Below, in pieces: positions 6,427 through 37,690 of a DNA stretch of 64,000 nt. The notes beneath the pieces are model-generated. The model was not told the origin of the DNA and ran no database searches. It saw only the letters and a program-made list of their open reading frames with translations. The stretch's first letter is position 1. Each line of letters begins with the position of its first letter. Source of the stretch: a virus (taxonomy: Duplodnaviria > Heunggongvirae > Uroviricota > Caudoviricetes); IMG/VR virus record IMGVR_UViG_3300027917_004307; one strand, 5' to 3'. The position numbers were made by a program, and so were the translations under genes.

Positions 6427-6750
6427 TTATTCACCGTCCGCATAGCTCGTGGTGCCTTTGGCATAGAACTGCTGTTGCAGACTGGCAAGCTGAGTGCGGT
6501 ACTGCTCAAGCAGACCACCAAGAGCACGCATCGTCTCCTCCAACTTGCCCATTCGCTGTTCTAATATACGAAACATCTTGCGAGTTTCGTTGCCATGGTT
6601 TACGGCAGCTTCAGTATTCCGGCGGTTGACTTCTTCAGAGGCCAGCATAGTTGCGATGTCTTTAGGAACCGCCATGATTTTGTCTAAAGCTTTCTTGTCG
6701 GTAATTTTAACTTCTACTTCCTCACCGCCTGTAGAGCCTATCGCTGTCAT
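6427..6750 (-). CDS. small coiled-coil protein (possible fibre assembly/neck factor)
   Basis: 107 aa with heptad-like Leu/Glu-rich sequence, lying between fibre genes. Confidence 0.35.
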   Translation of the reverse strand: MTAIGSTGGEEVEVKITDKKALDKIMAVPKDIATMLASEEVNRRNTEAAVNHGNETRKMFRILEQRMGKLEETMRALGGLLEQYRTQLASLQQQFYAKGTTSYADGE

Positions 6751-6759
6751 AAAAACCTC

Positions 6760-8553
6760 TTATTCGTCGGAGACCAACAAAACAGTAATATCTTTGTCTG
6801 CATCAGACGCCAATGTATCTACAATATCAAACTGTTTATAATACGGGGACGATGTTTGCTTCCTAGCCCATCCTGAGAAAGGTTGGTCGAAAGAAATCGA
6901 CCACGAATCACTAATCTCACCGCTACCATCTGTTGTTCCGGCAAGCATCACAAACGTCGCCGTAATCGTACCAGTCGCAGGAGAAGACCCAATGGTTTCA
7001 TTCGTGGTATAAGTATAAGTACTACCGTCAGAGTATGTGATCTGATAACGACCGTTATAGACGTCCTCGTTGGCTCCTTGGATGTTCACCCAATCCCCGG
7101 TTTCCAGGCCATGAGTCGCATGTGTGACGGTCGCTGTAGTACCAGATCCAGTAATGTTTACCGAGGCGTTGTAGGGGAAGTTGACACCGCTTGTCACTTC
7201 CACAAAAACCTGTACTCCAGAGATGACAGCTTTTGTGTCACCATCTTTGACAGTAATGGTAAGAGTAACCGGGCTGATAACTACGCTAGTTGACGCCCCA
7301 GACCCATTTCTAACGCTGAAATTTCCTGTGCCACCAGTGATATAAATCGTGATTGCTTTGCCGGAGTTGTTATAGATGGTGGAGTCATTCTGCTCATCAG
7401 AAGCATTGTAACCAGATGTCGTCCAGCCACGAAGTGTAATCGAACTAGGCGTGTTGCTGCCTAATTCAATCGCATGAGTAGTGGCCGTGCCCTTAGTGAA
7501 CTCCATATCGTCCAACTCACCATCAGGATCAGCATTGACGTTGTAATATAGGGCAGCGGTACCAGTAGAACCCTCGTAGCCTTTGATCACCGAACCTGTC
7601 AGGTCTGCGCCACCAGCTGTGATCTGACCGCAATCGTTGTATGAGTTACCAGTGACAGTCTGGCCACTAGCATAGGTGAAATCTCCGCCCCTACGGAAGA
7701 CGTTATCAGTAATCTCAACAGAACCTGGGCTACCGGTGGACATATCGAAGTCAAATCTTGTGTCGGCAGCGGTACCGGCGGACTTGATGGTAGACCCGGT
7801 GATGAGAATGTCCGCGCCGCTGCCATTACCGTTGATGGCGTAGAGTCCGTCAGCGACGGGCTGATCCGTGAAGATCAGCACGTCACCATCCATCTCGAAG
7901 TAGGTCGTGGTAGCGCCGTTGCCGAGCTGTATCTTGCCGTAACTGAAGTAAACACCCTCGCTCTCCAGCACTATCCCGTAGCCTATGAGTGTGGCCCCAG
8001 AAATACGGTCTGCTTCTGCAACATCACTAAGATGCACAGCATTTGAACCGCTACCTGTACCGCCAGTGATATAGTAGCCGTCCATGTAACGGAAGTAGTC
8101 GACCCAGGTATTGGTGGCATTCTTGGCGTTGGTGTGGTGATTGGCGCGGATACCCCAACGATCGACGTTGGCTGGGGTCACAGTGGTGAACAGCGCGCAG
8201 TCGACCACCATGTTGAACCAACCGCCGAAATAGTCGTCGCTGCTGAAGATAGTCACATAGTCGGTATTCGTACCGTCGTACACGAATACCTCGTAACCGC
8301 CGTTAGTCTCAGTCTCCATGTAGGGCACGTTGATCGTGTTGATCCAGAGACGGAGGTGTTCTCCGGAGCAAGAGATAGGCGAGCCCTTATCTACGTAACC
8401 CTCATCAAGGTCGGAGCGGAGGATGCCAGACATGGCGTTGGTACCCTCTTTCTTGATGTCTGGGTCCGCAGTAGTGAACTCAGTCCAATCGGTGTTAGCA
8501 TCAGCGTCGTCAATCTCAGTGAGATTGATTGCTCCCAGCGTTGCTGTTGCCAT
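6760..8553 (-). CDS. structural fibre / baseplate-distal protein (G/T/S-rich beta protein)
   Basis: 597 aa, GC-rich, with Gly/Thr/Ser-rich beta-strand composition typical of phage receptor-binding proteins. Adjacent to the other fibre genes. Confidence 0.5.
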   Translation of the reverse strand: MATATLGAINLTEIDDADANTDWTEFTTADPDIKKEGTNAMSGILRSDLDEGYVDKGSPISCSGEHLRLWINTINVPYMETETNGGYEVFVYDGTNTDYVTIFSSDDYFGGWFNMVVDCALFTTVTPANVDRWGIRANHHTNAKNATNTWVDYFRYMDGYYITGGTGSGSNAVHLSDVAEADRISGATLIGYGIVLESEGVYFSYGKIQLGNGATTTYFEMDGDVLIFTDQPVADGLYAINGNGSGADILITGSTIKSAGTAADTRFDFDMSTGSPGSVEITDNVFRRGGDFTYASGQTVTGNSYNDCGQITAGGADLTGSVIKGYEGSTGTAALYYNVNADPDGELDDMEFTKGTATTHAIELGSNTPSSITLRGWTTSGYNASDEQNDSTIYNNSGKAITIYITGGTGNFSVRNGSGASTSVVISPVTLTITVKDGDTKAVISGVQVFVEVTSGVNFPYNASVNITGSGTTATVTHATHGLETGDWVNIQGANEDVYNGRYQITYSDGSTYTYTTNETIGSSPATGTITATFVMLAGTTDGSGEISDSWSISFDQPFSGWARKQTSSPYYKQFDIVDTLASDADKDITVLLVSDE

Positions 8554-8556
8554 GGC

Positions 8557-8880
8557 TTACTCGCACTTCTCTTTGAGGGTCTCTATAACAGGGCGCAGCT
8601 GCCGTACCTTTTGCTCGGTCAGGCAATTGAACAGTTTGCACATGCGTGGTTTCTTGTCCTGTATCCTGCATATAGCAAACCCGTTATTTAGTTTGCTCAG
8701 ATAGATACAGATATCGTCTTCATCCACAGGGATCGTAGGCCCGAGGTCTCCGTCAATAACTACAATATCGGCTGATATTTTTTCATCAGATGCGTAAGAG
8801 CAGCCACCAAAAACGCTGTCGCGGCGGTAGCCACAACACCAACCACACCGCACACAATCCACGAAGAACTCTTTAGGCAT
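8557..8880 (-). CDS. YkgJ/UPF0153-like CxxCxxCC metal-binding protein
   Basis: 'CVRCGWCCG' CxxCxxCC motif plus a further Cys (KPRMCKLFNC) as in the putative zinc/iron-chelating domain family. Confidence 0.45.
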   Translation of the reverse strand: MPKEFFVDCVRCGWCCGYRRDSVFGGCSYASDEKISADIVVIDGDLGPTIPVDEDDICIYLSKLNNGFAICRIQDKKPRMCKLFNCLTEQKVRQLRPVIETLKEKCE

Positions 8881-11344
8881 CCGAAATCCGTGAGATAGTC
8901 AGAGTCTGGCCGACACTAGTAAACGTCCACTGGCTGATGTACTCCTTGATTGGCGTTCCACCGCCATCTCGCACGAGAGCAACCAAATCACGGCTACCAG
9001 CGGTATGTACAGCCTGGTACCGATCAGTAGAACTGGTACCATCGTACTCTTGGTCCAGGTACGCAATGTAGATGTCGTTTCCGATATCCGCATTGACAGA
9101 TGCGAAATCTTCGTTTCCATCGGTCGTATCGATGTTGTAGAACCGGTTGGGCGTCCCGTTCTCCCAGTTATTGTAGTGCAGGCGGCGCTCCAGACCGTTG
9201 TTGTCCGTCACCCGAATCCAGCCATCAGCCGGAGTGTCGGAAGGAATGGACTCCGTGATCTCCACCTCGGTGATGTTGTCCGTTGTGAGAGCGGCGGCCA
9301 GAGACAACTGATCCTTGTCGATGGCCGGGTTGTCCTCCGGATCAAGAGTGACGCCATCCCACGGAGCAACCAGCACCCTGTCGCCAGTGACCATTCCACC
9401 GACGATGTTGGTAACCAGGTTGGGCGGGTTCCTGGTAACCCCGTCCAACGCGGTGAGTTTGTCATTCTGAGACAGGTCGGCGTACTCAACACCGACACCG
9501 TAAGCGCCAATAATGGCCGAACCAGTGGACTGTCCGAGGAATGCAGGCGAAACGGCTCTGGATGTGACACTTCCATCGACGTCCAGGTAGTCCGTCACAT
9601 CGGCGGCGGCAGGGTCTGTTCCACAGTAATACAGCCTAATATTGTTGCTCACCGTAACGCCATTCAGCGTCTGGACGTACAGGTTACCCGTGGCCCCATC
9701 ATCGTCAACAGCCAAACAGAGCAGCAGACCACCGCCGGTCACTGCTGTAGGCGTGCCATTGACCGTGGCCTGGGCTCCGGACACTTGACCAGTAAAGGTC
9801 TCTGCGTCCGTGACAGTGCCGCTCTCCACTCGAATGATGAGGCTGCCCGTAGAGCCATCGTCGTCGATGGCAATGACCGTGCCTTTCCAGGCAGGGGTAG
9901 CCGTGTCCTCGTGGACAGCCTCGCCAACGAGGAAAGGACCTCCGGACTCGCCTGTATAAACCACGTTGGTGCCCCAGGCGAGGCGGTCGTTGGTACTAAC
10001 AGAGATTCCGCCAGCTTCACCGTCGTAGGCGAACGAGTGGGTAACGCCTCGGAACCAGATGCCCGGGATGTCGTGAATCTCGGACGATGTGTACACCTGG
10101 AAGGCAAGGTCATCAGCGGCAACCGCCGTCCACCCAGCTGTATTATGCGCCCGGTTACCGCTATGGGTACCAGATGAAGCTAAACCCTCAACGTGAACAT
10201 AATTCGAAGCATCTCCATCTCCATGCTCGATCACGAGGCAGTAGTACGTACTTGCTGCCACCGGCACCGGAGTCTCCCACCAGAAGGTGTACTCGCGGTA
10301 GTCAGAAGTGAGATTGCCAGCCTCAATTGCCTCAGATACGCCACCCTGAATGGCATTGGGCACCGATGATGTCCCGTACGTGCCGCTGTGGGAGTAGATG
10401 GAGGCTGTGATATCGCCAGTGGGAGAACCCAAACCGATCTTTAGATTCACCGTGACCTTGTGAATCAGCATGGCGTTGCCGCCGACCGTGAACGACTGGG
10501 CCGCTCCCGTAATGGTAGCATCGTCCACGACGAAATTGGAGCCACTATCCGAGCAGGAGTCCTCGGCGGTTGGATCCTTGGCGAGCCATTTGGTGCGCTC
10601 GTAGAGCTGGTTGATGGTGTAGGAGTCGCGGTTCCATTCGGAGTAGTACTCCTCGTCTGTTCCGTTGTTGTCAACGTCGATCAGGCGGAGACCCTCGGTA
10701 TTAGTGATAGTGGTCCATCCGGCCACGGTGGCGGCGACGGTTTCATTGTTCAGGTCGTCGCTGTCGGTAAGGGCCAAGACGTTGTTGCCACGGGCAGTGC
10801 CGTTGATCTTGAATTCGCTGTAGGTGTTCTCGTAAGTACGGCAGATACCTACCAACCGCCGACCGTCGATATCGACACCATTCACCCGAGTCTTGATCAT
10901 GAATCGGTGGCTAATACCAGCATTAGCGTCGGCGTTCAGACCACCAGTACTGAAGTTCCACCAATCGTCGGCCAGGGCTTTACCGTCCTGGAGGATCTGG
11001 ATCTGGACTGTGGCGTTGCCGAAGTTCACGATGCCATCGTAGATTGTATCCCCGCCGTCCTGCACGATCGAACCGTCGTAGAGATGTTCGACAGCGTTGT
11101 CATCAAGGTTGTACCCGTTGAGTAATGTGATGTAGTTGTCCGTCGCTCGGCTGGACGGGTTTAGACCAGTGATGTCCAGCTCATCGTCACCAGATGCCAC
11201 GGCGTCGTCCGCGAGGCCCTGGATCCAGCGGTGAAGCTGAATCACGGTCGCATACGACGGGCTCCCACCGTCATGATCGTCTCCGATATATCGGATATCC
11301 TTAGTGGACCTGTCAATGGTCCAGTCACCTGGCACTATAGCCAT
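8873..11344 (-). CDS. large tail fibre / receptor-binding structural protein
   Basis: 823 aa, GC-rich, G/T/D/N-rich with no enzymatic motif. Lies within the fibre gene block. Confidence 0.5.
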   Translation of the reverse strand: MAIVPGDWTIDRSTKDIRYIGDDHDGGSPSYATVIQLHRWIQGLADDAVASGDDELDITGLNPSSRATDNYITLLNGYNLDDNAVEHLYDGSIVQDGGDTIYDGIVNFGNATVQIQILQDGKALADDWWNFSTGGLNADANAGISHRFMIKTRVNGVDIDGRRLVGICRTYENTYSEFKINGTARGNNVLALTDSDDLNNETVAATVAGWTTITNTEGLRLIDVDNNGTDEEYYSEWNRDSYTINQLYERTKWLAKDPTAEDSCSDSGSNFVVDDATITGAAQSFTVGGNAMLIHKVTVNLKIGLGSPTGDITASIYSHSGTYGTSSVPNAIQGGVSEAIEAGNLTSDYREYTFWWETPVPVAASTYYCLVIEHGDGDASNYVHVEGLASSGTHSGNRAHNTAGWTAVAADDLAFQVYTSSEIHDIPGIWFRGVTHSFAYDGEAGGISVSTNDRLAWGTNVVYTGESGGPFLVGEAVHEDTATPAWKGTVIAIDDDGSTGSLIIRVESGTVTDAETFTGQVSGAQATVNGTPTAVTGGGLLLCLAVDDDGATGNLYVQTLNGVTVSNNIRLYYCGTDPAAADVTDYLDVDGSVTSRAVSPAFLGQSTGSAIIGAYGVGVEYADLSQNDKLTALDGVTRNPPNLVTNIVGGMVTGDRVLVAPWDGVTLDPEDNPAIDKDQLSLAAALTTDNITEVEITESIPSDTPADGWIRVTDNNGLERRLHYNNWENGTPNRFYNIDTTDGNEDFASVNADIGNDIYIAYLDQEYDGTSSTDRYQAVHTAGSRDLVALVRDGGGTPIKEYISQWTFTSVGQTLTISRISDA

Positions 11345-11454: not shown

Positions 11455-11916
11455 TCAATTAACTGTAACAGACGTTAGATTCTTGCCAACATATACTAAA
11501 TTTTTGGTTAGTGTTGCTCCGTCGCTATTCCTTGTCAATACTATCTTAGTCAAATTCTTACCTGTATATGTCAAAACTTTACCAAACAATTGGACTGCCT
11601 TGGTATTGTCAACATAAACATTTATACTGGTAAGATTTTTACCAACATAAGTAAATTCAGTGTATCTGGCAATCGATGCTGCCTTAAATGCCATTTCCAA
11701 TTCAAGATTTAATTTTTCCCTATCAGTTATGGCTGATGGAATTGGATCGTTTAAGACTTTCCAATCGGCTAATGCACCTGCCGCAGCTGCTACCGCCCAG
11801 TAATACGTTATACCAGTTGACCTTACGGTACGTACGTCACCCTGTACATTACCTACAACAGGCAAACTAGGGAAAGTAGCGACTGAATCTCTGAGCACTT
11901 TTACTATTTTAGACAT
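11455..11916 (-). CDS. repeat-containing virion-associated protein
   Basis: Internal repeats YVGKNLTSINVYVDN / YTGKNLTKIVLTRN / YVGKNLTSVTVN. Confidence 0.4.
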   Translation of the reverse strand: MSKIVKVLRDSVATFPSLPVVGNVQGDVRTVRSTGITYYWAVAAAAGALADWKVLNDPIPSAITDREKLNLELEMAFKAASIARYTEFTYVGKNLTSINVYVDNTKAVQLFGKVLTYTGKNLTKIVLTRNSDGATLTKNLVYVGKNLTSVTVN

Positions 11917-12700
11917 CTATAAGGTCAAGCCTCAGTCCAACTATTGCAGGTAATTCAGTCTGTGGATCGGGGCTGCCATCCCAATTCCTAGAAATTTTAA
12001 TGCTCACTATATCATTGGCATGGATAAATTCGCCAGTATCCATAATTTCAGTTTCTCTTATGTCACCCCTCAATAAATTAAAGGTTGATATGTTGGTATC
12101 ATTTGTAATTTCTGAACTATTACCAGTGGTTATTTCTGTCGCCACGACTGAAGTTCTTAAATCATAAGACGTATTGTCCCCAGAATCGTAGGCCCATATC
12201 AGATATATTTTCATTCTTGTATAAATAATGCTTCCATCTATTTTAGTATTATATCCTATTACTGAAAGCTCATTAGATGGTAAATACAAAATTAATCTTT
12301 TATCGTCTAAATTGCCTTGGGTAGCGCCAGCCCATACACTCATGGCACCAACAGCAACAAAATTCGGGTCTTGATCGAACATTATTGGTGTTGGTTCTAG
12401 CGTATCACTTCCTATCAGCCAGTTAATGTATGCTTTAAATTTCTCACCACGCTGTATGCCATAAATCTGATCCAAAAACGGCAGAGCTGAATTCGGTATA
12501 TCCAATTCTATCGTGTTAGTCAACGGATCATAAATCGTTCTAAATTCAACATTTTCCTCATTATTCAATGCCAATCGAGCGAATAATGCATACAGAAATA
12601 AATCGTTCATACCAGCGGATTCTCTAGCAGAACGAAGCACATTCGGAGTTATTCGTCCGAATACGTTGTCACCTCTGGATACGGCCATACAATCCTCCAT
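11909..12700 (-). CDS. hypothetical protein (fibre-block associated)
   Basis: 263-aa ORF translationally coupled to both neighbours. Confidence 0.4.
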   Translation of the reverse strand: MEDCMAVSRGDNVFGRITPNVLRSARESAGMNDLFLYALFARLALNNEENVEFRTIYDPLTNTIELDIPNSALPFLDQIYGIQRGEKFKAYINWLIGSDTLEPTPIMFDQDPNFVAVGAMSVWAGATQGNLDDKRLILYLPSNELSVIGYNTKIDGSIIYTRMKIYLIWAYDSGDNTSYDLRTSVVATEITTGNSSEITNDTNISTFNLLRGDIRETEIMDTGEFIHANDIVSIKISRNWDGSPDPQTELPAIVGLRLDLIDV

Positions 12701-12725
12701 TATTATATTTGATTATCTTTAGATA

Positions 12726-13457
12726 TCAATCGGGCTTGGGGTGCCTACAATCGGTGGTTTTGTGAGAGGGGATTTGTGATGTGGCTTTTCTTAGTGCTTG
12801 TGATATATCATAATACTCTACCATATCATTGATTTTAGAACCTGGTGTGCACGATATTATCTTAAAGTCAAACTCTTTGGCATATGGGAGTATTTCTTTG
12901 ATTTGCCTCAAAGCCATGTCATACGTTCGCTGGTTGTATCCGATCTGTACGTCGTTGAGTTTTCTTTCATAACAATATATGTTGTTTTTATTTGTAACAA
13001 ATGAGCATCCGACAAGATAAACCTCGTTGAACCCTAACCTATATGCAACTTGGATTGCCAACGTAAATACATTCTTACACCAAGTGAAATTCCTGCCGCG
13101 CAAATAGAATACATTAGGCTCCATTTTCTCCGATGCCATAAAATAAGTGTTCGGCATATCGCGCCATCTTTTATCACCAATCATACAATTCTTTCTAGTA
13201 ATATAAGTAAATTTCATTGGGGCTGGGTCCATCAATATCGACGCGGAATAATTTTCGGCGATATCAGCACCAACCCATAAATCAGGTCTTATAATCGTTG
13301 CAGTGTTATTCATTACCATTTTGACTATTAATTTGTTGTCAAACTTGTTTTTCACCTCATTAATATATGGCGACCCTCCAAATAAAAAGCATGGTCCACT
13401 AAATAGACCATCTAAATCCATAGCTTTTCGCCTGCCACCTTGGTATCTAAAAAACAT
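12726..13457 (-). CDS. hypothetical protein, possible Rossmann-like sugar/nucleotide transferase
   Basis: Motifs LFGGSPYIN ... WVGADI ... YLVGCSF suggest an alpha/beta nucleotide-binding fold. First gene of the glycan-modification cluster. Confidence 0.35.
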   Translation of the reverse strand: MFFRYQGGRRKAMDLDGLFSGPCFLFGGSPYINEVKNKFDNKLIVKMVMNNTATIIRPDLWVGADIAENYSASILMDPAPMKFTYITRKNCMIGDKRWRDMPNTYFMASEKMEPNVFYLRGRNFTWCKNVFTLAIQVAYRLGFNEVYLVGCSFVTNKNNIYCYERKLNDVQIGYNQRTYDMALRQIKEILPYAKEFDFKIISCTPGSKINDMVEYYDISQALRKATSQIPSHKTTDCRHPKPD

Positions 13458-15352
13458 TACAGTAACCCTAAAGCTGCTTTTAGAATTATATCTGACGTTT
13501 CTTTGCGGAATCTCTCTATGCCAAACTCTGCAACTGACTTTGATCTGGCTTTCATCCCTATTTCGTACCTCATCGTTGGGTCATTAACCAATTCTACCAA
13601 ATACTTTACGAAATCGTTGTCATCGTCGCATAAAAATCCATCAACGCCATGGGTAATTTGTTCTGCTGGCCCACCTTTATTCTCACACACGACTGGAAGG
13701 CCTGCAGCCATCGCCTCTGATATCACCCTACCCCACGAATCAACCGTACCTTCTTTGTTACGGTGAACGAATATGTCAAAACTTTTATAGAATTCCTTAG
13801 GAGTCTTACTCCCTATCTTAGGCGTTTCACACTGGCTAAGAGTTATGTTGTCCCAGTATTCTGAACCACCAACGAGAGAAAATCTAACTTGAGGAGCTTG
13901 TCTCTTTACCGCATCAAGTATGGTTAGTAATTCAGCCGGGAATCTCGTATGTAAACTAGATGTCAATTTGCCTATCACACATCTTTTATTGTCTGGCGAT
14001 CTATCAATCGCTTCATATGGATTCAGATCCATGCATGGTGGAATGAGTTTCCAATTCATTCTCGGTTTTATGCGCTCATAGCTATCCAATATGGTTTCAG
14101 ACACAAACACGTCCAAATCAGCGTGAAAACAAGGGAATGTCCTGTTGTGATGAACGGCAATTAAAGGCCATTGCTTTAACCAATCGTACGGCCATTCTCC
14201 GTCCACAGTCTTACCACCAGTATTGTGGAACATCATTATCGCTGGATCTATCTCTCTTACTATTTCTTCTGTTAATTTTTCTATATGGCACACTTCAATG
14301 CCATCATTCCTGAATTCGTTGGCCATCTCAAAGTCTTCTCTTGAATCATAAAAAAAGCATATGATGTGGTAGAATTCAGGATATATTTTTGCAACATCTC
14401 TAGAGAATAATATAGTCCCACCACGCCAGAACGCCTGGTTACAATGTAGCATGACGTTGTTCGCCTTGCGAACTGGCCTGGGCGGGTATACTTTGAGTGG
14501 TATAACTTTGCTGTTGACCAGCAGCTTCGAATCGGCAACACCGAATTCCCTATTTATGTTGCCGACCACACGGTCATACTTTTGCCAAGCTTTGTTGTTC
14601 TCAAAGAAATAATAGTACGTTGACCTGTTTATCTCTAATCCAATTTGTCTTTCTCTGCCATCCTCAGCTATCGTTTTGCCATGCGACTGGTGAATACCAA
14701 ACACACCCATATCTAACTCAAGGTTGAATTTGGCCGACAACGCTCTAAAGCCAAACTCCGTGTCATCACACCCAATTCCAAGCATGAACAATTCTTCTAT
14801 GCCGCCAAGCTCTACAAAATCAGTCTTTGTCATGGCTCCTATGAAGAAAACCCATGGATGATTGCGTGGTAGCTTGTTAGGCCCACAATATTCAATCCCA
14901 CCAATTTTCCTAAGCCTTTCAATATCAAAATTGTCAAACTTACGAGACTCAGCGTTGATTACGTGGCCATATAGAAATGTTTTGTCTCTAGCACGTTCGG
15001 AAATCAATTTTAAGTTGTCCCTAGCAAACACAGTCTCTGGAGACGTCAGCACTATTATATCACCATCCGCCTGTTTTACACCAAAGTTCTGCGGGAGTGC
15101 AGGATTTGTGAGCCCATCAAACATGTTCGGTTTAATCGTGCCGCTATTGACGTCAACATCGTATAGCTTAAAGTTGAGTTTACAATGATATCCATTCAAC
15201 AAATCAATTAGACCATCATTTGACTGCTGGTCTACGATTACAATTTCAAATTGGTCTGGTGGAAGTGTTTGTGAGACGTATGATTCTAAAGTTGGTTTGA
15301 ATAAATCGGCCCGGTTTCTAATTGGCACTATTATGCTGATTTTTGGTTTCAT
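13457..15352 (-). CDS. bifunctional glycosyltransferase: N-terminal GT2 (GT-A) domain fused to C-terminal GT4-like (GT-B) domain
   Basis: N-terminus 'ISIIVPIRNRADLFKPTLESYVSQT...FEIVIVDQQSND' is a GT2 signature. C-terminus 'GRVISEAMAAGLPVVCENKGGPAEQITHGVDGFLC' is the EX7E motif of retaining GT-B enzymes. Confidence 0.7.
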   Translation of the reverse strand: MKPKISIIVPIRNRADLFKPTLESYVSQTLPPDQFEIVIVDQQSNDGLIDLLNGYHCKLNFKLYDVDVNSGTIKPNMFDGLTNPALPQNFGVKQADGDIIVLTSPETVFARDNLKLISERARDKTFLYGHVINAESRKFDNFDIERLRKIGGIEYCGPNKLPRNHPWVFFIGAMTKTDFVELGGIEELFMLGIGCDDTEFGFRALSAKFNLELDMGVFGIHQSHGKTIAEDGRERQIGLEINRSTYYYFFENNKAWQKYDRVVGNINREFGVADSKLLVNSKVIPLKVYPPRPVRKANNVMLHCNQAFWRGGTILFSRDVAKIYPEFYHIICFFYDSREDFEMANEFRNDGIEVCHIEKLTEEIVREIDPAIMMFHNTGGKTVDGEWPYDWLKQWPLIAVHHNRTFPCFHADLDVFVSETILDSYERIKPRMNWKLIPPCMDLNPYEAIDRSPDNKRCVIGKLTSSLHTRFPAELLTILDAVKRQAPQVRFSLVGGSEYWDNITLSQCETPKIGSKTPKEFYKSFDIFVHRNKEGTVDSWGRVISEAMAAGLPVVCENKGGPAEQITHGVDGFLCDDDNDFVKYLVELVNDPTMRYEIGMKARSKSVAEFGIERFRKETSDIILKAALGLL

Positions 15353-17004
15353 AGCACAAAATACATTTTGCTGTCCAATTTTTCATACTCTTCTTCGTCG
15401 TAGTAATCCAATTCTATATCCGCAAAACCTGATGCGATGTATGACCGTACCCTAAAATGACCTTGAAATAGTCTGTTGCCACTTCTCATGCCTATTGGCG
15501 GCAATTTTACGTCGCTTTTTATTCCATTAAGGCAGTCTATTAATCTAAGATAGTCTCTGGTTGCTATACGTATTGAACTTCCTCTTACGATCCTATCGTG
15601 ATGGCAAAATTCATTCATGCTTATGAGCGCATCATAAGAGTCTAAACACAGGTCATGTATCGGCTGATTTTTGTTGGCCCCAACATTAGCCTCAATTGAT
15701 TTAATATTGTTCTTAATCCTGTTGTGTAATTTGTCATGCTCCCATTCGCCGCTAACAACCAATCCATGCAATATCTTAAGGCACGACTCTATCGTAACCG
15801 GTGGCATTACCGACATAACCCATTTAATGTTTTTGCCTTTATAATTACAAACATCACCGACATGTATTCGTTTGTTTGCTAACCATGGAGCAAAATACAC
15901 AACCAGCCTGCCATGCCTATGTCCTTTTATCGCCTTGGCTGGGATAAATCCATAATCTTCGGCTATGCCAGCAATGATTTCATTATCAACAGGATCAATC
16001 TCAAAGATCGCCTCATTGCAATGTTTAAACAGATCAGCAATGGCTTCTTTATATCTCAATTCTCCAACTTGCTTCCTCACGTGGTGAAGCATATTTAGGC
16101 TCATCACCACATCATACTTCTTATCGAAGAACCAATCACCACCAAATTTCCTTCCAACAAATTTGCAGTTTGATTCTCTAAAATCTTTGAGCTTATTGCA
16201 AGTCTCTATGGCTGGAGCATCGGCATCAAACCCGACCACTTCCTTAGCGCCAGTCTCTTCAGCCTTAAATGAAAAATACCCGTTAAAGCAGCCTATGTCA
16301 CATACGGATTTGTTGTAGAATGAAATACCACTGTTTCTTATGTTCTCCCATGTGGTAAGAGACTTAACTCTTCCTTCTTTTATTACATCACTATTTATTT
16401 CTATGCGCTGGTATGAAGGATCGCACGATGTTTTGTTAACTAAGCTCGTTATTTCTTCTTTATGTGTGTCAGACAATTTGGTTGGTTGTTTCTTAGGTTT
16501 TGTCAACAAAGCCCTTATAATCGTCACACGGCCAGATCGCCTGTTCAAGATTTCTTTGTGATATTCGTCAAAACCAGCATTTTTGAAGTCGTTAACTTCC
16601 CACCCAGATTTATGTGTTTGGGCTTCGTCGGCATTTTCACCCCAAACATCTTCAGTCTGCTTAAAAAACCCGTTTGGAGTATAAACGGCAACACACTTCC
16701 TAGCTACCATAATGCTATAATGCAACGCCTTTATACCGTCTCTTTTGTCTAAATGCTCCAAGGAATCAAACCACAATACCGCATCAAAACTGTTTGGAAC
16801 AATGTGTCTTTCTAGTTGTGTTGCATCCGCCACAATATATGGCAAATTAGAATTCTTTACAGCTTTATCGACATAACCTCTTACTATATCAATACCTAAA
16901 TACGTGTAACTTTTAAATAAGTCAGAATGGCGGCCTATACCACACCCGATGTCCAATATTGACTTGACACCTAGTTTGTTGAATTTCTCTATAAACCATT
17001 TCAT
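15349..17004 (-). CDS. tandem class-I SAM-dependent methyltransferase domains
   Basis: Two motif-I glycine loops, 'ILDIGCGIGRHS' and 'VCDIGCFNGYFS', each followed by an acidic motif II (GIDIV / GFDAD). Confidence 0.65.
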   Translation of the reverse strand: MKWFIEKFNKLGVKSILDIGCGIGRHSDLFKSYTYLGIDIVRGYVDKAVKNSNLPYIVADATQLERHIVPNSFDAVLWFDSLEHLDKRDGIKALHYSIMVARKCVAVYTPNGFFKQTEDVWGENADEAQTHKSGWEVNDFKNAGFDEYHKEILNRRSGRVTIIRALLTKPKKQPTKLSDTHKEEITSLVNKTSCDPSYQRIEINSDVIKEGRVKSLTTWENIRNSGISFYNKSVCDIGCFNGYFSFKAEETGAKEVVGFDADAPAIETCNKLKDFRESNCKFVGRKFGGDWFFDKKYDVVMSLNMLHHVRKQVGELRYKEAIADLFKHCNEAIFEIDPVDNEIIAGIAEDYGFIPAKAIKGHRHGRLVVYFAPWLANKRIHVGDVCNYKGKNIKWVMSVMPPVTIESCLKILHGLVVSGEWEHDKLHNRIKNNIKSIEANVGANKNQPIHDLCLDSYDALISMNEFCHHDRIVRGSSIRIATRDYLRLIDCLNGIKSDVKLPPIGMRSGNRLFQGHFRVRSYIASGFADIELDYYDEEEYEKLDSKMYFVL

Positions 17005-17984
17005 ACGAAATTACGATGATCTACGTCATCGATCAGATTGGCCAATGCGTTGTTGTAATTTGAGTAATAACATTTGATGCAACCAGACCCGTCATAATGG
17101 TTTTGCTTACTCCATATATCATCCAGGTTATTTATGTCTCCCATTACCATAACGCTGCTGCAGTCCCTATCGGGAACTGCTTGCGCATACTGTGTGCCAC
17201 AGCACGGATAGATTAAACCATCAGCACCAACAACTGGCTTCAATAGGCTTATTAGGCACCTCTGTGTGCCAGCAGCATACTGTTTCCTATCCTGCCAGAT
17301 AACTATGTTGTCGTTTATTGCTGACCCTATTAAATTCGATAAATGTTTTAAGTCAGCAACAGGTTTTAAGATATCATTAACCATTCTTACATGGGTGAAG
17401 TTATGCTCGTTCGCATACTTTATTATATTGAATATATTGTCGGTATTTGGTTCATCAGTAATAACATAACTAAATGACCAGTCGATGTCGAAATTGACCA
17501 CTTTATCAACGGATTTGAACAATTTTACAGTATCAGATTCATCGCTAGCAGAAATTCTCACCCATGTAATCGGAGCAGCCCGCAATTTATTTAGAAGATA
17601 ACCATTTGTAACAAGCCCAACTTCAATCCCACATCTGAGTGCTTCGCTTATCACCCAATTAATGTCGTACTGCGCCTCTTTCCATAATAACGGTTCGCCA
17701 CCGCCAGTAATAGTGACTGATCTGCATCCAAGCCCCCTAAAATTTATGAATATATTCTCCAATTGTTCTTTCGACAGCTGTAAAGATTTCTCCCTTTCAG
17801 AACATGAACAGAAGGAGCAATTAAGGTTGCACTTATTGGTGGGATTTAATTGTAAATGAACTGGCTGTATTATATTGTGGTCGATTATACTTGATAGCAA
17901 TTTTATATTCTTAAAAATTTTAATTGGGAAACCACCACTGGCAGCTGTGTATGCTTGTGTCTTCGACATATATTTTATATACAT
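17001..17984 (-). CDS. radical SAM enzyme
   Basis: 'NPTNKCNLNCSFCSC' CxxxCxxC cluster and the 'GGGEPLLW' SAM-binding motif. Confidence 0.7.
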   Translation of the reverse strand: MYIKYMSKTQAYTAASGGFPIKIFKNIKLLSSIIDHNIIQPVHLQLNPTNKCNLNCSFCSCSEREKSLQLSKEQLENIFINFRGLGCRSVTITGGGEPLLWKEAQYDINWVISEALRCGIEVGLVTNGYLLNKLRAAPITWVRISASDESDTVKLFKSVDKVVNFDIDWSFSYVITDEPNTDNIFNIIKYANEHNFTHVRMVNDILKPVADLKHLSNLIGSAINDNIVIWQDRKQYAAGTQRCLISLLKPVVGADGLIYPCCGTQYAQAVPDRDCSSVMVMGDINNLDDIWSKQNHYDGSGCIKCYYSNYNNALANLIDDVDHRNFV

Positions 17985-18442
17985 TGAACTTATTTTGCTG
18001 CAAATATTTATATATTATCAATAACAGGATGGAAATGTTCTTCTTTGGCTTCCTCTTGCTTTGTGGGTATTCAGATGGCCATTCACCAACGAACGTGTAA
18101 GGGAAGCGAAAGGACGGCTCAGGAAATACCGTCCGGAGGGTTATTAAAATAACAATGGTTCCAGTAGGCAGCCGGGGCTCAGAGTGACCACAGACAGGTC
18201 GGAGCAACTTCCGGATTTCCGTCATCCTTCAACCATGTCGCCTTCAGCCATCAGCAAGTTTCAGTCTTGTGACTCTGATTCTTAAGCCTTGCGAGAGGGC
18301 AAGCATCTTAACAGGATGCTGCAGTGGCTTTCAAGGCCATTGCTCGGCAGTCCGTATAACGCAACAGACTCAAGCGCTCATTTTGACCACAAATGAGAAG
18401 GGTCTGCTTCTTCTCCTTTTTCACCTATGAAACCACTACAAT
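17985..18442. other. GC-rich hairpin-dense non-coding island (candidate structured RNA / regulatory region)
   Basis: About 460 bp with no ORF of 60 aa or more in the gene orientation, and GC-rich against an AT-rich background. Consecutive stem-loops gccttgc-gagagg-gcaagc, gcatc-ttaacag-gatgc, cagtggc-tttcaag-gccattg (with a G-U pair on the plus sense) and a nested hairpin cagac..ctcattt-tgaccac-aaatgag..gtctg. Confidence 0.25.
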
Positions 18443-19024
18443 CTATTCCTTGGGCGGAGGCCCAAGGTCAACATGCTCCGTGAAATTGATATTCTCAATC
18501 GCCACGTCAAGATCATGCTCCAGTTGTATTAAACTGGACATTTCTTTCTCGATTTCATCTAATGAAACGTATGACACCAATTCAAGATTAGCCTGTTCTT
18601 TATGTTCACCAACCATCCTGCTGATCTGTGACTCAATTCCAGCTTGATGGGCTGTCAGGTGGTGTTTCATCTGCTGGAGGAATTGCATCCTATCCTTAAG
18701 CATCCCCCTACGGTGCTTGCCATGCCCACGCAGTGACAATGCTTCAAACATCGACATTGTCTTTGGTTTACCGTTAAAGTCAACCGTTACTGTCTTTTCA
18801 AGATTTGCCCTAAGGATTGCAGTATTGAGGTCGACCCAATATTTTTCAAGGTCACTGACGGATTGTTTAAGTTTATTTACAGTAAGTTGTTGGTTTTTAA
18901 TAGGAGGCTTAACAGCATTCGAGTGGCAGAGCAATTCCATGATTTGGGCATTGGATTTAGTAATTCTTTTGTCAACAAGAGCCCTAGTCTTGAGAGCTTC
19001 GCTCAACGTCATTTGGTCCGACAT
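18443..19024 (-). CDS. coiled-coil protein adjacent to the vault-protein homolog
   Basis: 193 aa with helical heptads (LEKYWVDLNTAILRANLEK...). Flanked on both sides by GC-rich non-coding islands. Confidence 0.5.
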   Translation of the reverse strand: MSDQMTLSEALKTRALVDKRITKSNAQIMELLCHSNAVKPPIKNQQLTVNKLKQSVSDLEKYWVDLNTAILRANLEKTVTVDFNGKPKTMSMFEALSLRGHGKHRRGMLKDRMQFLQQMKHHLTAHQAGIESQISRMVGEHKEQANLELVSYVSLDEIEKEMSSLIQLEHDLDVAIENINFTEHVDLGPPPKE

Positions 19025-30489: not shown

Positions 30490-30778
30490 AGGCCTCTTTA
30501 TCGTATATTCCTGCTCGCAATGACGGGTGGGTCTTATGTGTGTATAAAATCACTTCTTCTTTATAAACTTCTAGTCGCGCCTCTGTGTCTTGGCCATTCC
30601 AGAAAATTTTGATCTCTGCGGGGCCGCCCCCATTTTGTGTGGTTGTTGTATACCCAATATCATGAAGCCAGCACAACATGATGTGTAGGAGGTTATGCTC
30701 TTCATCGAAAGCCCGGCATTTAGCCTTCTTTTGGCCATGTGCGTTTGATTTCGTCATCGGCATACTTCCAGAGGCCAT
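30380..30778 (-). CDS. hypothetical protein
   Basis: 132-aa ORF. Overlaps 30118-30489 in another frame, so its exact extent is uncertain. Confidence 0.3.
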   Translation of the reverse strand: MASGSMPMTKSNAHGQKKAKCRAFDEEHNLLHIMLCWLHDIGYTTTTQNGGGPAEIKIFWNGQDTEARLEVYKEEVILYTHKTHPSLRAGIYDKEAFGRLKRFMEAYAEMFNGRNALYYTIFPAWFRRYDRD

Positions 30779-31526
30779 CTTTAATGTAGTAAGCCTGCTT
30801 GCCGTGAAGCTTATTCAATGTGTCTTTCAGGAACGTTGCCCAATTGAGCTTGTTATAGAGACCTAGGTCCCATCTTTTATCTACTGTCCCTATTTTAATC
30901 TTATCAATCTTTCCGACCAATGAATCAATCACCTTTAACGCTTCAGCTGTGTCGATCACAGGTTCCAGACTAACCCAAGTTTGAAGTCCAGCGGCTCGCA
31001 TATTAGCCAATGTTTCAAACCTATCTGCAATAGGACTAGCATTTGGCTCTAACTTCTGCCTGATATTCTCATCAATAAAGCAGATGGTGGTAGCAAATTC
31101 AATATCGTATTTCTTGAAGAGGTTGAAATCTCGCATGGCCATGCTACTCTTTGTTAAAATAGTCATCGGGACTCCATGTTTTCCCATGACATTGATCGCC
31201 TGTTGTGTCAGCAGAAGTGTGCTTTCTAGGGGCTGGTAAGGATCAGAGGTGAAACTCATCAAGACCCTGTCGGTTCCATTGAACCTTTTTGCTTCATTTC
31301 CAAGCTGATGTAAGAGATTCTTTACCCTTTTGGCTTCGCTTAATGTTGCTTTACCCCTCACAGTTGGTAAATCAAATAACTTCTTTTTCTCGTCTTTCTT
31401 GGCTCCCTGATATGCAAAGTAAGGTGCATAACAATATTCGCACTTGTGACCACATCCCTTGTAGAGATTACAAGCCAGGTTGGAATATTCCAGGGCAGGT
31501 CCTTTTGGTTTGTAGATCAGGCTCAT
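30720..31526 (-). CDS. radical SAM protein of the SplB / DNA-photolyase-like (COG1533-type) family
   Basis: 'YSNLACNLYKGCGHKCEYCYAPY' carries the CxxxCxxC motif embedded in the xPYxGCxHxCxYCYA signature of spore-photoproduct-lyase-like enzymes. Confidence 0.6.
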   Translation of the reverse strand: MSLIYKPKGPALEYSNLACNLYKGCGHKCEYCYAPYFAYQGAKKDEKKKLFDLPTVRGKATLSEAKRVKNLLHQLGNEAKRFNGTDRVLMSFTSDPYQPLESTLLLTQQAINVMGKHGVPMTILTKSSMAMRDFNLFKKYDIEFATTICFIDENIRQKLEPNASPIADRFETLANMRAAGLQTWVSLEPVIDTAEALKVIDSLVGKIDKIKIGTVDKRWDLGLYNKLNWATFLKDTLNKLHGKQAYYIKDGLWKYADDEIKRTWPKEG

Positions 31527-36871: not shown

Positions 36872-37690
36872 TCAGGGAAGGCCTTGAGAGGAGTCTCTTC
36901 GGTCATCAGGCAGTTTCACCGTCGTCTCCGTCCTAGCGAACTTGGTGATCGAGCCGTCCTGTTCCACCACAGCACAGATAGGACCCCATCCTTTAAACTT
37001 GCCCTCCGGAATCGCGCCTAGGATGCCGTTAATGAGCCCAAGAGGGCGAATGCGATTCGACCCATCCTCGGATTTCCCAACCTGAATATCAGGGTCATCA
37101 ACCATGGTGTCATTACAGGACACTTCATGCTCAATGAAAGCACGGCAGGCATCCGGATCAGTCTTCAGGAAACGGTTCATCACATCGATTGCCTTGTCTA
37201 TTGAGTCCATCGTTACTCCTCGTTTAAATCTCTTCTGTATTCTCTTGAACATCTCTTCGTTGGAGATTGTGCGGCCTGCGCGGATGTCGGCCATCCCACG
37301 CTCTACTAAGGTATGAATGGCCCCCTGGAGGAGTTCCTGTAAGACCACGCCCGTATTTGTCTCAACTTGGACAGCCCGGTCATCCCACAATTCGAGCATA
37401 TTGTAATCTTTCTCGTTGGTCACTTCGAGGCGCTTCCCGACATGCTCTTCACACCAATCCTGAATTTCTTGCCTCATCGCCTCGATCTTCTCGGGTGTGT
37501 CGCTCACACGAGTCGGGTCAGGCCTCCCGACGCGGGCGGTCATGATCTTAACTTCTTTTCCCTCAGCCAACCATTTCTTGACTCGTTCAACCATTTCAGG
37601 AATGGGAGCGCCTATCTTGCCGCCATTCCAACCACCATAGACAGCCAAAGTGCCATCTAGATCTACACCTATCCAGCCTTGTTCAGTCAT
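36872..37690 (-). CDS. HAD-superfamily phosphatase-like protein
   Basis: N-terminal 'GVDLDGTLA' DxDGT motif, then a C-terminal extension. Confidence 0.5.
   Translation of the reverse strand: MTEQGWIGVDLDGTLAVYGGWNGGKIGAPIPEMVERVKKWLAEGKEVKIMTARVGRPDPTRVSDTPEKIEAMRQEIQDWCEEHVGKRLEVTNEKDYNMLELWDDRAVQVETNTGVVLQELLQGAIHTLVERGMADIRAGRTISNEEMFKRIQKRFKRGVTMDSIDKAIDVMNRFLKTDPDACRAFIEHEVSCNDTMVDDPDIQVGKSEDGSNRIRPLGLINGILGAIPEGKFKGWGPICAVVEQDGSITKFARTETTVKLPDDRRDSSQGLP

Follow-up and report, generated by a model that had tools for sequence, protein, structure and literature searches.

What do four adjoining enzyme genes next to fiber-like genes build, and onto what is their product placed? The question is raised by the window, which is the whole 64,000-nucleotide stretch of viral DNA analyzed here. 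Within it, positions 12726-17984 are exactly filled by four minus-strand open reading frames (Table 1), and these genes are best explained as a translationally coupled, glycan-building cassette in a jumbo phage whose capsid is T4-like. An earlier note on this DNA had offered two alternatives for the cassette, namely the glycosylation of virion proteins (fibers) or the modification of a host-surface polymer. Our analysis supports the domain assignments behind that proposal and favors the first alternative over the second.

Table 1. Cassette genes, candidate promoter, and fiber-like neighbors (positions in the window)
Feature	Position	Strand	Basis or remark
Radical SAM enzyme, 327 aa	17001..17984	minus	Pfam and CNLNCSFC motif
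Double methyltransferase, 551 aa	15349..17004	minus	Pfam, two class-I SAM domains
Bifunctional glycosyltransferase, 631 aa	13457..15352	minus	Pfam, GT2 and GT4
Minimal Maf/sialyltransferase-like (MptE-like fold) transferase, 243 aa	12726..13457	minus	Fold
TATAAATA, T4 late-promoter-like octamer	18005..18012	minus	Ends ~20 nt upstream of the radical SAM ATG
Modular fiber-family member, candidate glycan acceptor, 263 aa	11909..12700	minus	Homologues adjoin the cassette
Protein with three YD-like 'Y.GKNLT' repeats, 153 aa	11455..11916	minus	Start overlaps the 263-aa gene by 8 nt
Acidic Gly/Ser/Thr-rich protein, 823 aa	8873..11344	minus	Composition, GC3
Fiber-like gene, 597 aa	6760-8553	minus	Composition, synteny
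Fiber-like gene, 691 aa	4342-6417	minus	Composition, synteny
Fiber-like gene, 235 aa	3635-4342	minus	Composition, synteny

Enzymes of the cassette

The four genes had been described as coupled to each other, and their junctions (GTATGA, CTATGA, and TAATG) bear this out. The cassette had also been placed downstream of the fiber block; because all of the genes are on the minus strand, it actually lies upstream (5') of the fiber-like genes. The octamer TATAAATA is a possible cassette promoter. Eight matches to this T4 late-promoter-like octamer occur in the window versus 2.8 expected, and a scan of the window found none preceding the capsid gene. No cassette protein has a transmembrane segment or a 19-residue hydropathy window above 1.4, and the maximum for the 631-aa glycosyltransferase, which is soluble, is 0.99. 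Other sugar-enzyme genes surround the fiber block: a PIG-L deacetylase is encoded ~6 kb 5' of the cassette, and beyond the fiber block there are genes for a DRL/Gfo-Idh-MocA oxidoreductase, a GT-B protein, and a GT2-like protein.

The radical SAM enzyme, recognized earlier by its CNLNCSFC motif, matches Radical_SAM (PF04055) at 61 bits versus a cut-off of 29.5. It carries the CxxxCxxC motif and GGE SAM-binding motif of the superfamily and has a partial TIM-barrel fold. Five further cysteines (C243, C261, C262, C302, and C305) are invariant, and its top structural neighbors are SPASM and twitch enzymes. The enzyme probably carries an auxiliary Fe-S cluster. Among the domains named for searching in the earlier note, radical SAM, GT2, and GT4 were all found, whereas the SPASM match is below its cut-off (18 bits versus 21.5). 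Equivalogs of MoaA, viperin, anSME, PqqE, MftC, QueE, HpnH, and ArsS were rejected because all NCBIfam scores are far under their cut-offs. The best of these matches, to archaeal MoaA, reaches 54.7 bits versus a cut-off of 325, and the matches span only the N-terminal half of the protein.

The radical SAM family is unnamed and has more than 1000 members, which are found only in viral contigs and metagenome-assembled genomes (MAGs). A search of 185,579 species genomes turned up the family at only 36 loci; every one is in a MAG, with many phyla represented, and several of the loci have capsid, protease, or portal genes adjoining. The family is thus essentially virus-borne. In IMG/VR, a GT2 gene accompanies the radical SAM gene in 71 of 80 loci (within 200 bp in 55 of them, and always on the same strand), and 36 of the loci have methyltransferase clusters. 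Furthermore, the radical SAM gene is located between the major capsid and connector/tail genes in every locus that holds both (13/13). The trio of radical SAM, GT2, and methyltransferase genes is inside the late structural operons of other viruses. The samples from which the trio comes are presumably mostly anoxic.

The two class-I SAM methyltransferase domains attributed earlier to the second protein were confirmed by Pfam. Two stretches match Methyltransf_25/11/12/31/23 at about residues 16-94 and 231-316, both above the Pfam cut-offs (78 bits for Methyltransf_25); the domains themselves extend over about residues 1-185 and 195-335 and carry the SAM motifs ILDIGCGIG and VCDIGCFNG. The C-terminal region (about residues 335-551, ~215-230 aa) has no Pfam match at E<5. 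No DNA-methylase domain was found in any cassette protein, and the methyltransferase domains belong to neither PF00145 nor PF01555. The architecture of the 551-aa protein recurs in loci L095 (560 aa) and L096 (550 aa). The first domain is a stand-alone 182-aa gene in L006 and is joined to the glycosyltransferase in L009. Fusions of methyltransferases and glycosyltransferases recur in relatives (P0004, P0007/9/10, and the 490-aa protein of L010), and these repeated fusions support the methylated-sugar chemistry that had been suggested for the cassette.

The third protein is the bifunctional GT-A/GT-B glycosyltransferase that the earlier reading made it out to be, with Glycos_transf_2 (PF00535) at its N-terminus (37 bits versus a cut-off of 23.3) and Glycos_transf_1 (PF00534) at its C-terminus (62 bits versus 26.4). 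Glyco_trans_1_4 also matches, at 55 bits, and the GT4 half includes the stretch SEAMAAGLPVVCENKGGPAEQI in the E-x7-E region. The GT2 domain lacks a canonical DxD; the sequence where it would usually be is 'LTSPE', a stretch that close relatives conserve. Because there is a weak match to Glyco_transf_7C (E of about 0.01), the sequence suggests a GT7/GT27-like variant. The best PDB sequence matches are TarS for the GT2 part and BshA and TreT for the GT4 part, which also matches PimB. Only 11 homologues of the protein were found; their GT4 halves are ~60% identical, and the N-terminal domain is swapped among them.

The fourth protein has the fold of the protein O-glycosyltransferase Maf (PDB 5mu5) and of sialyltransferases, including the sialyltransferase-like catalytic fold. 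Its match to PF01973 is 15.6 bits, under the cut-off of 34.6, and weak matches, the strongest at an E-value of 1e-5, are present in 10 of 12 members of its family. Pyrophosphokinases also have the MptE-like fold. The pairing of a GT4 domain with this Maf-like protein is very rare (11-12 database relatives).

Fiber-like neighbors and their linkage to the cassette

The genes next to the cassette had been called tail-fiber genes. The fiber-like part of this description stands, on the indirect evidence of composition, repeats, and a shared N-domain, whereas the word "tail" is less secure, as head fibers or whiskers are possible. No annotated fiber family was matched by these proteins in profile and database searches. 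The 263-aa protein belongs to a family whose ~95-aa N-domain is conserved and whose distal parts vary greatly, and the N-domain is all that is common to ~40 of 56 representatives. Homologues in four lineages (L001, L006, L009, and L095) carry collagen-like GPT repeats. Those of L001, L006, and L009 match Pfam Collagen (PF01391) at 51-74 bits versus a cut-off of 27.2, and the repeats of L095 were recognized by eye. Pfam finds no collagen repeats in the window's own 263-aa protein, and thus the collagen feature belongs to the gene family rather than to this copy.

The remaining neighbors are also fiber-like in several respects. The 153-aa protein is syntenic and 60-79% identical in L003, L005, and L096, and a repeat domain resembling its own is joined to the fiber N-domain in P0160 and P0163; the protein is probably a fiber partner or a distal module. 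The 823-aa protein matched no database family and has a homologue in L003/L005 (38% identical). Its K+R content is 5%, and the GC3 of its gene (0.67) is second only to that of the major capsid gene (0.74), compared to about 0.40 for the cassette. This is probably an abundant virion surface or fiber protein and possibly a further glycan acceptor. The 597-, 691-, and 235-aa proteins are low in K+R, high in S/T/G, and syntenic in L003/L005, and the C-termini of the 235- and 691-aa proteins are 43% identical.

Of these neighbors, the 263-aa family is the one that stays with the cassette. A homologue adjoins the GT4 and Maf-like pair in all six lineages found (window/L096, L003-5, L001-2, L006/L008, L009, and L095), and no related locus long enough to include the relevant flank lacks one beside the cassette. 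The linkage has survived inversions, since the pair and the homologue are co-directional at two loci but divergent elsewhere. The L095 locus also has a B12-dependent radical SAM enzyme.

Candidate targets of the cassette

The reading we prefer is the cytoplasmic glycosylation of virion fibers with a methylated, radical-SAM-tailored glycan, a proposal that we think has about as much for it as against it. It is favored because the cassette stays linked to one fiber gene family through rearrangements, because the fourth enzyme resembles a protein O-glycosyltransferase, because no cassette protein has a membrane segment, and because the trio is inside late structural operons elsewhere. The acceptor, donors, and radical SAM chemistry that we infer are as follows. 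The GT-A/GT2, GT-B/GT4, and Maf/sialyltransferase-like modules would each add one sugar from a nucleotide-activated donor, and one or both class-I methyltransferase domains would methylate the glycan. The compact radical SAM enzyme, which has no peptide-recognition domain, may remodel one of the sugars, at the nucleotide-sugar stage or on the growing glycan, by chemistry of the DesII/BlsE/BtrN type (oxidation, deamination, decarboxylation, or dehydration). The adjoining 263-aa fiber protein would be the most likely acceptor, perhaps along with other fiber-like proteins. The predicted outcome is a set of glycosylated virion fibers comparable to the BclA filaments of Bacillus spores or to chlorovirus-made glycans.

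Among the alternatives, the one that survives best is also unlikely. The cassette might remodel the host surface during infection, by modifying an envelope polymer (LPS O-chain, capsule, or S-layer glycan), for example so that superinfection is blocked or adsorption altered, and its place beside fiber genes would then reflect only a shared hypervariable host-recognition island. There is precedent in T4-like pelagimyophages and cyanomyophages, where cassettes of glycosyltransferases and radical SAM enzymes beside tail fibers have been read as modifying the host O-antigen (PMC7029224). Likewise, there are weak PHROG matches to 'GtrB-like O-antigen conversion' (E of 1e-4 to 1e-3), and the best NCBIfam matches of the glycosyltransferase domains are exopolysaccharide enzymes, though all are far under cut-off. 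However, neither a membrane protein nor a flippase, a polymerase, or a membrane-anchored glycosyltransferase is encoded in the cassette, and the capsid-to-tail late operons that hold the trio elsewhere are an atypical place for host-conversion genes. Moreover, the linkage is to one particular fiber gene family and not to fibers generally. O-antigen conversion of the GtrABC type in particular was rejected, given that the PHROG matches are weak, the hydropathy profiles are as described above, and no membrane-protein genes are adjacent.

Somewhat less likely still is a RiPP-like pathway, in which the radical SAM enzyme would modify a fiber or capsid polypeptide by cross-linking, epimerization, or oxidation, and the glycosyltransferases and methyltransferases would then decorate that site. 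The fold neighbors of the enzyme include peptide-modifying as well as sugar-modifying enzymes. Against this, its core begins at about residue 40 of 327, with no N-terminal peptide-recognition (RRE) domain, and no precursor-peptide gene is evident. Its size and architecture instead fit enzymes that act on small molecules, such as BlsE, itself a chain of 327 residues; DesII ranks second, and the NCBIfam scores are again all far under cut-off.

A free glycosylated and methylated metabolite, or a cytoplasmic polysaccharide, unconnected with the virion is improbable. All cassette enzymes are soluble, a radical SAM enzyme together with methyltransferases and glycosyltransferases is a tailoring set typical of natural-product sugar pathways (the DesII, BlsE, BtrN, AbmM, and SpeY neighbors), and the additional radical SAM enzyme of L095 would suit such a pathway, but there is no scaffold-forming enzyme or exporter, and the conserved linkage to fiber and structural genes would be unexplained.

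We consider it most improbable of all that the cassette glycosylates and methylates modified phage-DNA bases to evade restriction: phage glycosyltransferases are classically DNA-modifying, diverse ones reportedly hypermodify 5hmC (bioRxiv 10.1101/2023.12.21.572611), radical SAM enzymes are reported in thymidine hypermodification pathways (PMC8989533), and the fold of the fourth protein is shared with pyrophosphokinases, but the methyltransferase domains match small-molecule/tRNA-type class-I families rather than DNA C5 or N6/N4 methylases, no hydroxymethylase, TET/JBP, or DNA kinase is encoded in the cassette or its immediate flanks in the 261-kb genome, and the neighbors are structural rather than replication genes.

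Relation to known systems

Fiber glycosylation by the cassette would best be read as a novel variant of known virion glycosylation. More tentatively, and as a possibility we rate well below that of fiber glycosylation itself, the trio may represent an undescribed but widespread system with which phages and archaeal viruses tailor virion glycans, its compact twitch-type radical SAM enzyme producing a sugar new to characterized pathways. In this jumbo-phage clade, the trio would have been joined to the Maf-like transferase and the GT4 domain to build heavily glycosylated, BclA-like fibers, which in relatives are collagen-like. If the cassette does decorate fibers, then virion glycosylation extends to jumbo phages and to the organelles of host recognition, radical SAM chemistry joins the viral glycan toolbox, and an unnamed family of more than 1000 members gains a function. 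The conserved pairing of enzymes and fiber gene also offers a clonable candidate enzyme-substrate pair, even though the phage is uncultured. The pairing is also a warning against using 'LPS/O-antigen auxiliary metabolic genes' as a default label for such genes.

Among individual enzymes, DesII, BlsE, BtrN, SpeY, and AbmM are some of the closest structural or sequence neighbors of the radical SAM protein. Like sugar-acting twitch/SPASM enzymes, it is compact, has conserved extra cysteines, and is found in a sugar-enzyme context. However, it belongs to none of them (12-20% identity in structural alignments), and peptide-modifying enzymes score as well as those of the DesII/BlsE type. The fourth protein shares its catalytic fold with Maf flagellin O-glycosyltransferases (PF01973), but it is a catalytic core alone, whereas Maf enzymes have flanking flagellin-binding domains. 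Maf also uses CMP-nonulosonic acid donors, and neither the window nor its flanks showed a gene for NeuB/PseI or for a CMP-sugar synthetase.

To our knowledge, experiments have demonstrated that phage-encoded enzymes glycosylate virion proteins in only a few phages, notably mycobacteriophages. The mycobacteriophage glycans reportedly occupy the C-termini of capsid and tail-tube proteins, and we know of no radical SAM component in this system. A tblastn search of 50,697 phage records returned no mycobacteriophage match to the glycosyltransferase fusion. The likeness to the proposed role of the cassette is that phage-encoded glycosyltransferases decorate virion proteins (Freeman et al. 2023, as cited in PMC12619734 and PMC12801897).

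The host-recognition clusters of pelagimyophages and cyanomyophages (PMC7029224) resemble the locus in their T4-like capsids and in a variable region where glycosyltransferase and radical SAM cassettes are interleaved with fiber genes. They are described there only at the annotation level, and the linkage of Maf-like, GT4, and fiber genes is not described; the radical SAM relative in HTVC008M is just 23% identical.

Chlorovirus PBCV-1, with its A064R/A061L system, encodes soluble, cytoplasmic, multi-domain glycosyltransferase activity that works with SAM methyltransferases; A064R combines two glycosyltransferase domains with one methyltransferase domain and takes part in building the capsid glycan (PMC9614988). 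The likeness is one of architecture, extending to the glycosyltransferase-methyltransferase fusions of cassette relatives such as P0004 and to the virion-protein target proposed here. PBCV-1 differs in being a eukaryotic virus with N-linked capsid glycans, no radical SAM enzyme, and no Maf-like enzyme.

In the BclA filaments of Bacillus spores, Thr residues of PTG triplets bear an O-linked tetrasaccharide whose cap is anthrose, a methylated sugar (PMC6222408). That glycosylation, as described, does not include a radical SAM enzyme, and the window's 263-aa copy lacks collagen repeats. Relatives of this copy, by contrast, have long runs of GPT collagen repeats, and their genes are immediate neighbors of glycosyltransferase and methyltransferase genes; the product predicted for the cassette is likewise a methylated glycan on a filament.

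Gene content and layout of the cassette

The window corresponds to positions 7147-71146 of a 261,688-bp metagenomic contig (ENA ERZ27279932 k141_869270). Its genes include those for a T4-type major capsid protein, a portal, a terminase, and a ribonucleotide reductase. The capsid protein shares 31% identity with cyanophage gp23 and 40% with that of a 595-kb uncultured phage, and the cassette DNA has no match among 50,697 phage records. The phage might belong to, or be kin to, the moraphages, a newly described lineage of aquatic jumbo phages whose genomes reach 307 kb, whose predicted hosts are Bacteroidota, and whose core genome includes four glycosyltransferase orthogroups (PMC12619734).

Four minus-strand ORFs fill exactly the interval given in the earlier note, which described four consecutive genes. 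The gene junctions read GTATGA, CTATGA, and TAATG, so the translational coupling proposed there is plausible. However, its placement of the cassette downstream of the fibre block is wrong. All of these genes run on the minus strand, which puts the cassette 5' of the fibre-like genes, and it is transcribed ahead of them. Pfam searches confirmed the radical SAM domain and the fusion of GT2 and GT4 domains in the 631-aa protein, and likewise that the 551-aa protein contains two distinct class-I methyltransferase domains.

Features of the cassette and its surroundings, in window coordinates unless a related contig locus (L) is named
Feature	Position	Strand	Remarks
Second 107-aa gene	6427-6750		
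597-aa fibre-like gene	6760-8553		GC3 0.56
107-aa cysteine-rich protein (CVRCGWCC...)	8557-8880	-	weak CxxCxxCC (PF03692) match
823-aa fibre-like gene	8873-11344		GC3 0.67
153-aa gene	11455-11916	-	overlaps 263-aa gene
263-aa fibre-family gene	11909-12700	-	
Sigma-70-type promoter	12702-12729	-	TTGATA, 16 nt, TATAAT; 11/12 positions
Maf-like, 243 aa	12726-13457	-	cassette
GT2+GT4 fusion, 631 aa	13457-15352	-	cassette
Double methyltransferase, 551 aa	15349-17004	-	cassette
Radical SAM, 327 aa	17001-17984	-	cassette
Gap, 458 bp	17985-18442		no plausible ORF
TATAAATA octamer	18005-18012	-	
193-aa coiled-coil-like protein	18443-19024	-	PHROG 1491 'tail fiber protein', 4e-9
844-aa vault-like protein	19364-21898	-	MVP_shoulder 94 bits, Vault_3 36 bits, weak Band_7/SPFH
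PIG-L (LmbE-like GlcNAc de-N-acetylase), 379 aa	23928-25067	-	34.5 bits (cut-off 28.2)
268-aa protein	30720-31526	-	PHROG 'DNA repair photolyase'
272-aa protein	36872-37690	-	phosphoheptose-isomerase, polynucleotide-kinase-like PHROG matches
Capsid gene	40116-41666		GC3 0.74
278-aa gene beside capsid gene	41696-42532		GC3 0.63
Second glycan gene set	L133 (source contig) 15342-18901		just left of window coordinate 1
B12-dependent radical SAM, 516 aa	L095 6267-7817		
Radical SAM homologues, 693-697 aa	L080 7989-10082; L086, L087 7989-10070		
Head-decoration genes (examples)	L046 4602-5069; L036 4443-4943		

Cassette enzymes and their relatives

The radical SAM enzyme has more than 1094 homologues, typically with 45% identity over the full length, and for those listed the source records give no specific functional name. 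Every NCBIfam model is far from its cut-off for this protein. The subfamily search called for by the earlier note confirmed the superfamily. Placement in a solved or named subfamily failed by sequence, and fold matches were mixed. CxxxCxxC, GGGEP, C243, C261, C262, C302, and C305 are invariant in the family, and the five further cysteines suggest an auxiliary cluster. In three IMG/VR contigs (469, 111, and 217 kb), long homologues carry an insertion of ~350 aa, probably an intein, at the conserved cysteine-rich 'PCCG' region; the sequences on either side of it correspond to query residues 10-272 and 254-326.

A scan of IMG/VR yielded 97 viral contigs with radical SAM relatives. For 80 loci, neighbouring ORFs were clustered and cluster representatives were annotated. 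Of the 80 loci, 71 contain a GT2 gene, at 200 bp or less from the radical SAM gene in 55 and always sharing its strand. Clusters of class-I methyltransferases occur in 36 loci, sulfotransferase-like genes in 14, and NDP-sugar epimerase/dehydratase genes in 10. In the siphovirus-like subset, the genes run in the order portal, Mu-F, protease, head decoration, HK97-type capsid, [radical SAM, GT2, methyltransferase], connector, major tail, chaperone, and tape measure. All 13 loci that include both a capsid gene and a connector or tail gene have the radical SAM gene between the two. Among 185,579 species-representative genomes, only 36 radical SAM loci were found, all of them on contigs of MAGs that span many unrelated phyla, with no isolate genome among the sources; several have capsid, protease, or portal genes as neighbours. 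Given this capsid-to-tail position and the MAG-only loci with structural neighbours, the family is essentially one carried by viruses, within their late structural operons. The IMG/VR loci almost entirely lack the GT4 domain, the Maf-like protein, and the 263-aa family, and thus the cassette combines a widespread trio (radical SAM, GT2, methyltransferase) with a lineage-specific pair (GT4, Maf-like).

Ser/Thr-rich C-terminal tails, reportedly present on capsid and tail-tube proteins of mycobacteriophages, were not found on these proteins in the siphovirus-like loci. A conserved C-terminal serine motif, EA(V/L)(D/N)(M/L)S(G/D)SSG, is common to the head-decoration proteins whose genes lie just 5' of the capsid gene and the radical SAM/GT2 cassette, and could be a modification site.

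Only 11 relatives of the glycosyltransferase fusion were found, and the related contigs form a modular system. Every one of them carries the GT4 half (~60% identity) and the Maf-like gene (~55% identity), and the N-terminal GT-A domain is swapped. The GT2 type is accompanied by the radical SAM gene and a methyltransferase, whereas the alternative N-termini (a galactosyltransferase-like or a Methyltransf_24 domain) occur without the radical SAM and methyltransferase genes. The GT2 domain of the window has 'TSPE' in place of the expected DxD, and its assignment is uncertain. Methyltransferase-glycosyltransferase fusions among the relatives, namely P0004 (MT-GT2-MT24-GT4), P0007/9/10, and a GT2+MT protein in L010, argue that the methyltransferases would act on the glycan. 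The C-terminal region of the 551-aa protein (~215-230 aa) belongs to no detectable family, and a suspected ParB-like motif there was rejected, with zero Pfam matches even at E<5. In L095, the gene for a B12-binding radical SAM enzyme directly follows the Maf-like gene. Class B radical SAM enzymes that bind B12 are typically methyltransferases, and this appended gene suggests further glycan tailoring.

A search of 5.8 billion clustered proteins returned only 12 relatives of the Maf-like protein, 10 of which match PF01973 (MptE-like/Maf) weakly, below threshold. There is also a weak PHROG sialyltransferase match. A possible resemblance to the Cst-II sialyltransferase motif (LGYKEIYLSG..Y..Y...IGH) is given no weight here. 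When its AlphaFold model (pLDDT 85, pTM 0.85) was compared with known structures, the matches described a predicted minimal sialyltransferase-like catalytic core without the Maf flanking domains. This supports the possible transferase anticipated as the fourth gene, although the fold is also common to pyrophosphokinases and the assignment is uncertain. The N-terminus is conserved across homologues, so the long start overlapping the glycosyltransferase stop codon is correct; the database gene call is 12 codons short.

Fibre-like genes and other neighbours

In all related loci that extend to the flank in question, the cassette adjoins a homologue of the 263-aa gene. The two are co-directional in the window and L096 but divergent in L001-L006, L008, L009, and L095, and thus the linkage has survived inversions in six lineages. 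Members of this family have in common an N-terminal domain of ~95 residues (42-61% identity), which in L001, L006, L009, and L095 is followed by long GPT/GXY collagen repeats (Pfam Collagen, 51-74 bits for the L001, L006, and L009 homologues). The L001 and L009 homologues end in a beta domain. Searching all 1.84 billion representatives with HMMER gave 56 relatives, ~40 of which share only the N-domain and have very diverse C-terminal domains. Phage fibre or receptor-binding proteins are usually built in this way. The sigma-70-type promoter, near consensus, takes up the 25-nt spacer that separates the Maf-like stop codon from the 263-aa gene and stops 1 nt short of the first ATG. For this gene, the database call begins at Met5, which would make a transcript from that promoter nearly leaderless.

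Three NLT sequons in the 153-aa protein were rejected as sites of N-glycosylation: they fall within YD-like 'Y.GKNLT' repeats common to other fibre-family members, where such repeats are also fused to the same N-domain, and sequon density is unremarkable.

Protein searches with the 823-, 263-, and 691-aa proteins gave zero matches in phage records or PDB, which leaves the fibre label without homology support. The 823-, 597-, 691-, and 235-aa proteins match no known family, are partly paralogous, and are acidic (4-5% Lys+Arg) and rich in Gly, Ser, and Thr. GC3 is ~0.40 for most window genes, the cassette included, and the 823-aa gene is second only to the capsid gene. This spread looks like expression-linked codon bias, by which the 823-aa protein is probably abundant. 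These features suggest that the four are abundant virion surface proteins. The cysteine-rich 107-aa gene sits between the 823- and 597-aa genes; the two 107-aa genes were dismissed as paralogous chaperones, being unrelated to each other (E 0.3).

Upstream of the cassette, the 458-bp gap separates the 193-aa gene from the radical SAM gene and is GC-richer than the cassette. A structured RNA or riboswitch was rejected there (zero Rfam matches, folding z-score -0.81). The TATAAATA octamer was likewise too weak as a general late promoter, since the window has just 8 copies and the capsid gene is preceded by none of them. The 193-aa protein, encoded between the vault-like gene and the cassette, also scores 27 bits against the DIP1984 family, below cut-off. 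A vault-like shell protein is unusual for a phage; its gene, ~1.4 kb upstream of the cassette, is not kept beside it in relatives, and L096 has a VWA protein there.

Further sugar enzymes surround the fibre block. The PIG-L deacetylase, ~6 kb upstream of the cassette and with a homologue upstream in L096, may be part of the same glycan pathway. A second glycan gene set, past the fibre block and a helicase, encodes a 316-aa GT2-like protein (22.3 bits, just below cut-off), a 385-aa DRL/Gfo-Idh-MocA oxidoreductase with a SAF domain (140 bits), and a 384-aa GT-B protein (52 bits), and is kept in L001, L004, and L095. The 272-aa protein may be another sugar-phosphate enzyme. We take the PHROG of the 268-aa protein to be a spore-photoproduct-lyase-like family, and it is thus possibly a second radical SAM enzyme.

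A glycosylation model and its alternatives

None of the four cassette proteins has a membrane segment, and no flippase, polymerase, or membrane glycosyltransferase gene is near the cassette. Together with methyltransferases that are not DNA methylases, the fibre linkage, and the Maf-like fold, this makes glycosylation of virion fibres the best-supported model, to which we give about an even chance. The cassette enzymes would act in the cytoplasm, adding to the fibres a methylated oligosaccharide in which one sugar is tailored by the radical SAM enzyme. The glycan reading of the earlier note is thus partly supported, by the domains, the fibre-gene linkage, and the methyltransferase-glycosyltransferase fusions, and one rival to fibre glycosylation, modification of a host surface polymer, which the note also named, still carries some weight. 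T4-like pelagimyophage islands unite glycosyltransferases, radical SAM, and fibre genes, as the window does, and have been attributed to host O-chain modification (PMC7029224). However, the lack of membrane segments and of nearby export and polymerization genes makes this unlikely here.

The radical SAM step could instead be directed at a protein. Its closest folds mix peptide maturases (SkfB 19.7, SuiB 18.1) with sugar and nucleoside-sugar enzymes (DesII 19.0, BlsE 18.7, BtrN 14.1), and a profile search of PDB sequences returned the same mixture. The structural model (pLDDT 93), however, has no N-terminal peptide-recognition domain, and we regard a protein target as rather improbable; from the compact architecture and gene context, we lean towards a sugar substrate. 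A free metabolite as the product is highly improbable, and DNA hypermodification, given the nature of the methyltransferases, is the least probable of all.

Fibre glycosylation has parallels in known systems. The methyltransferase-glycosyltransferase fusions among cassette relatives parallel the architecture of PBCV-1 A064R, in which the terminal part of the capsid glycan is assembled by two glycosyltransferase domains together with one methyltransferase domain (PMC9614988). The collagen-like relatives of the 263-aa protein recall BclA, where Thr of PTG triplets bears a tetrasaccharide with anthrose, a methylated sugar, as its cap (PMC6222408). Read as fibre glycosylation, the cassette is a new form of known virion glycosylation, and the unnamed radical SAM family is its newest part.
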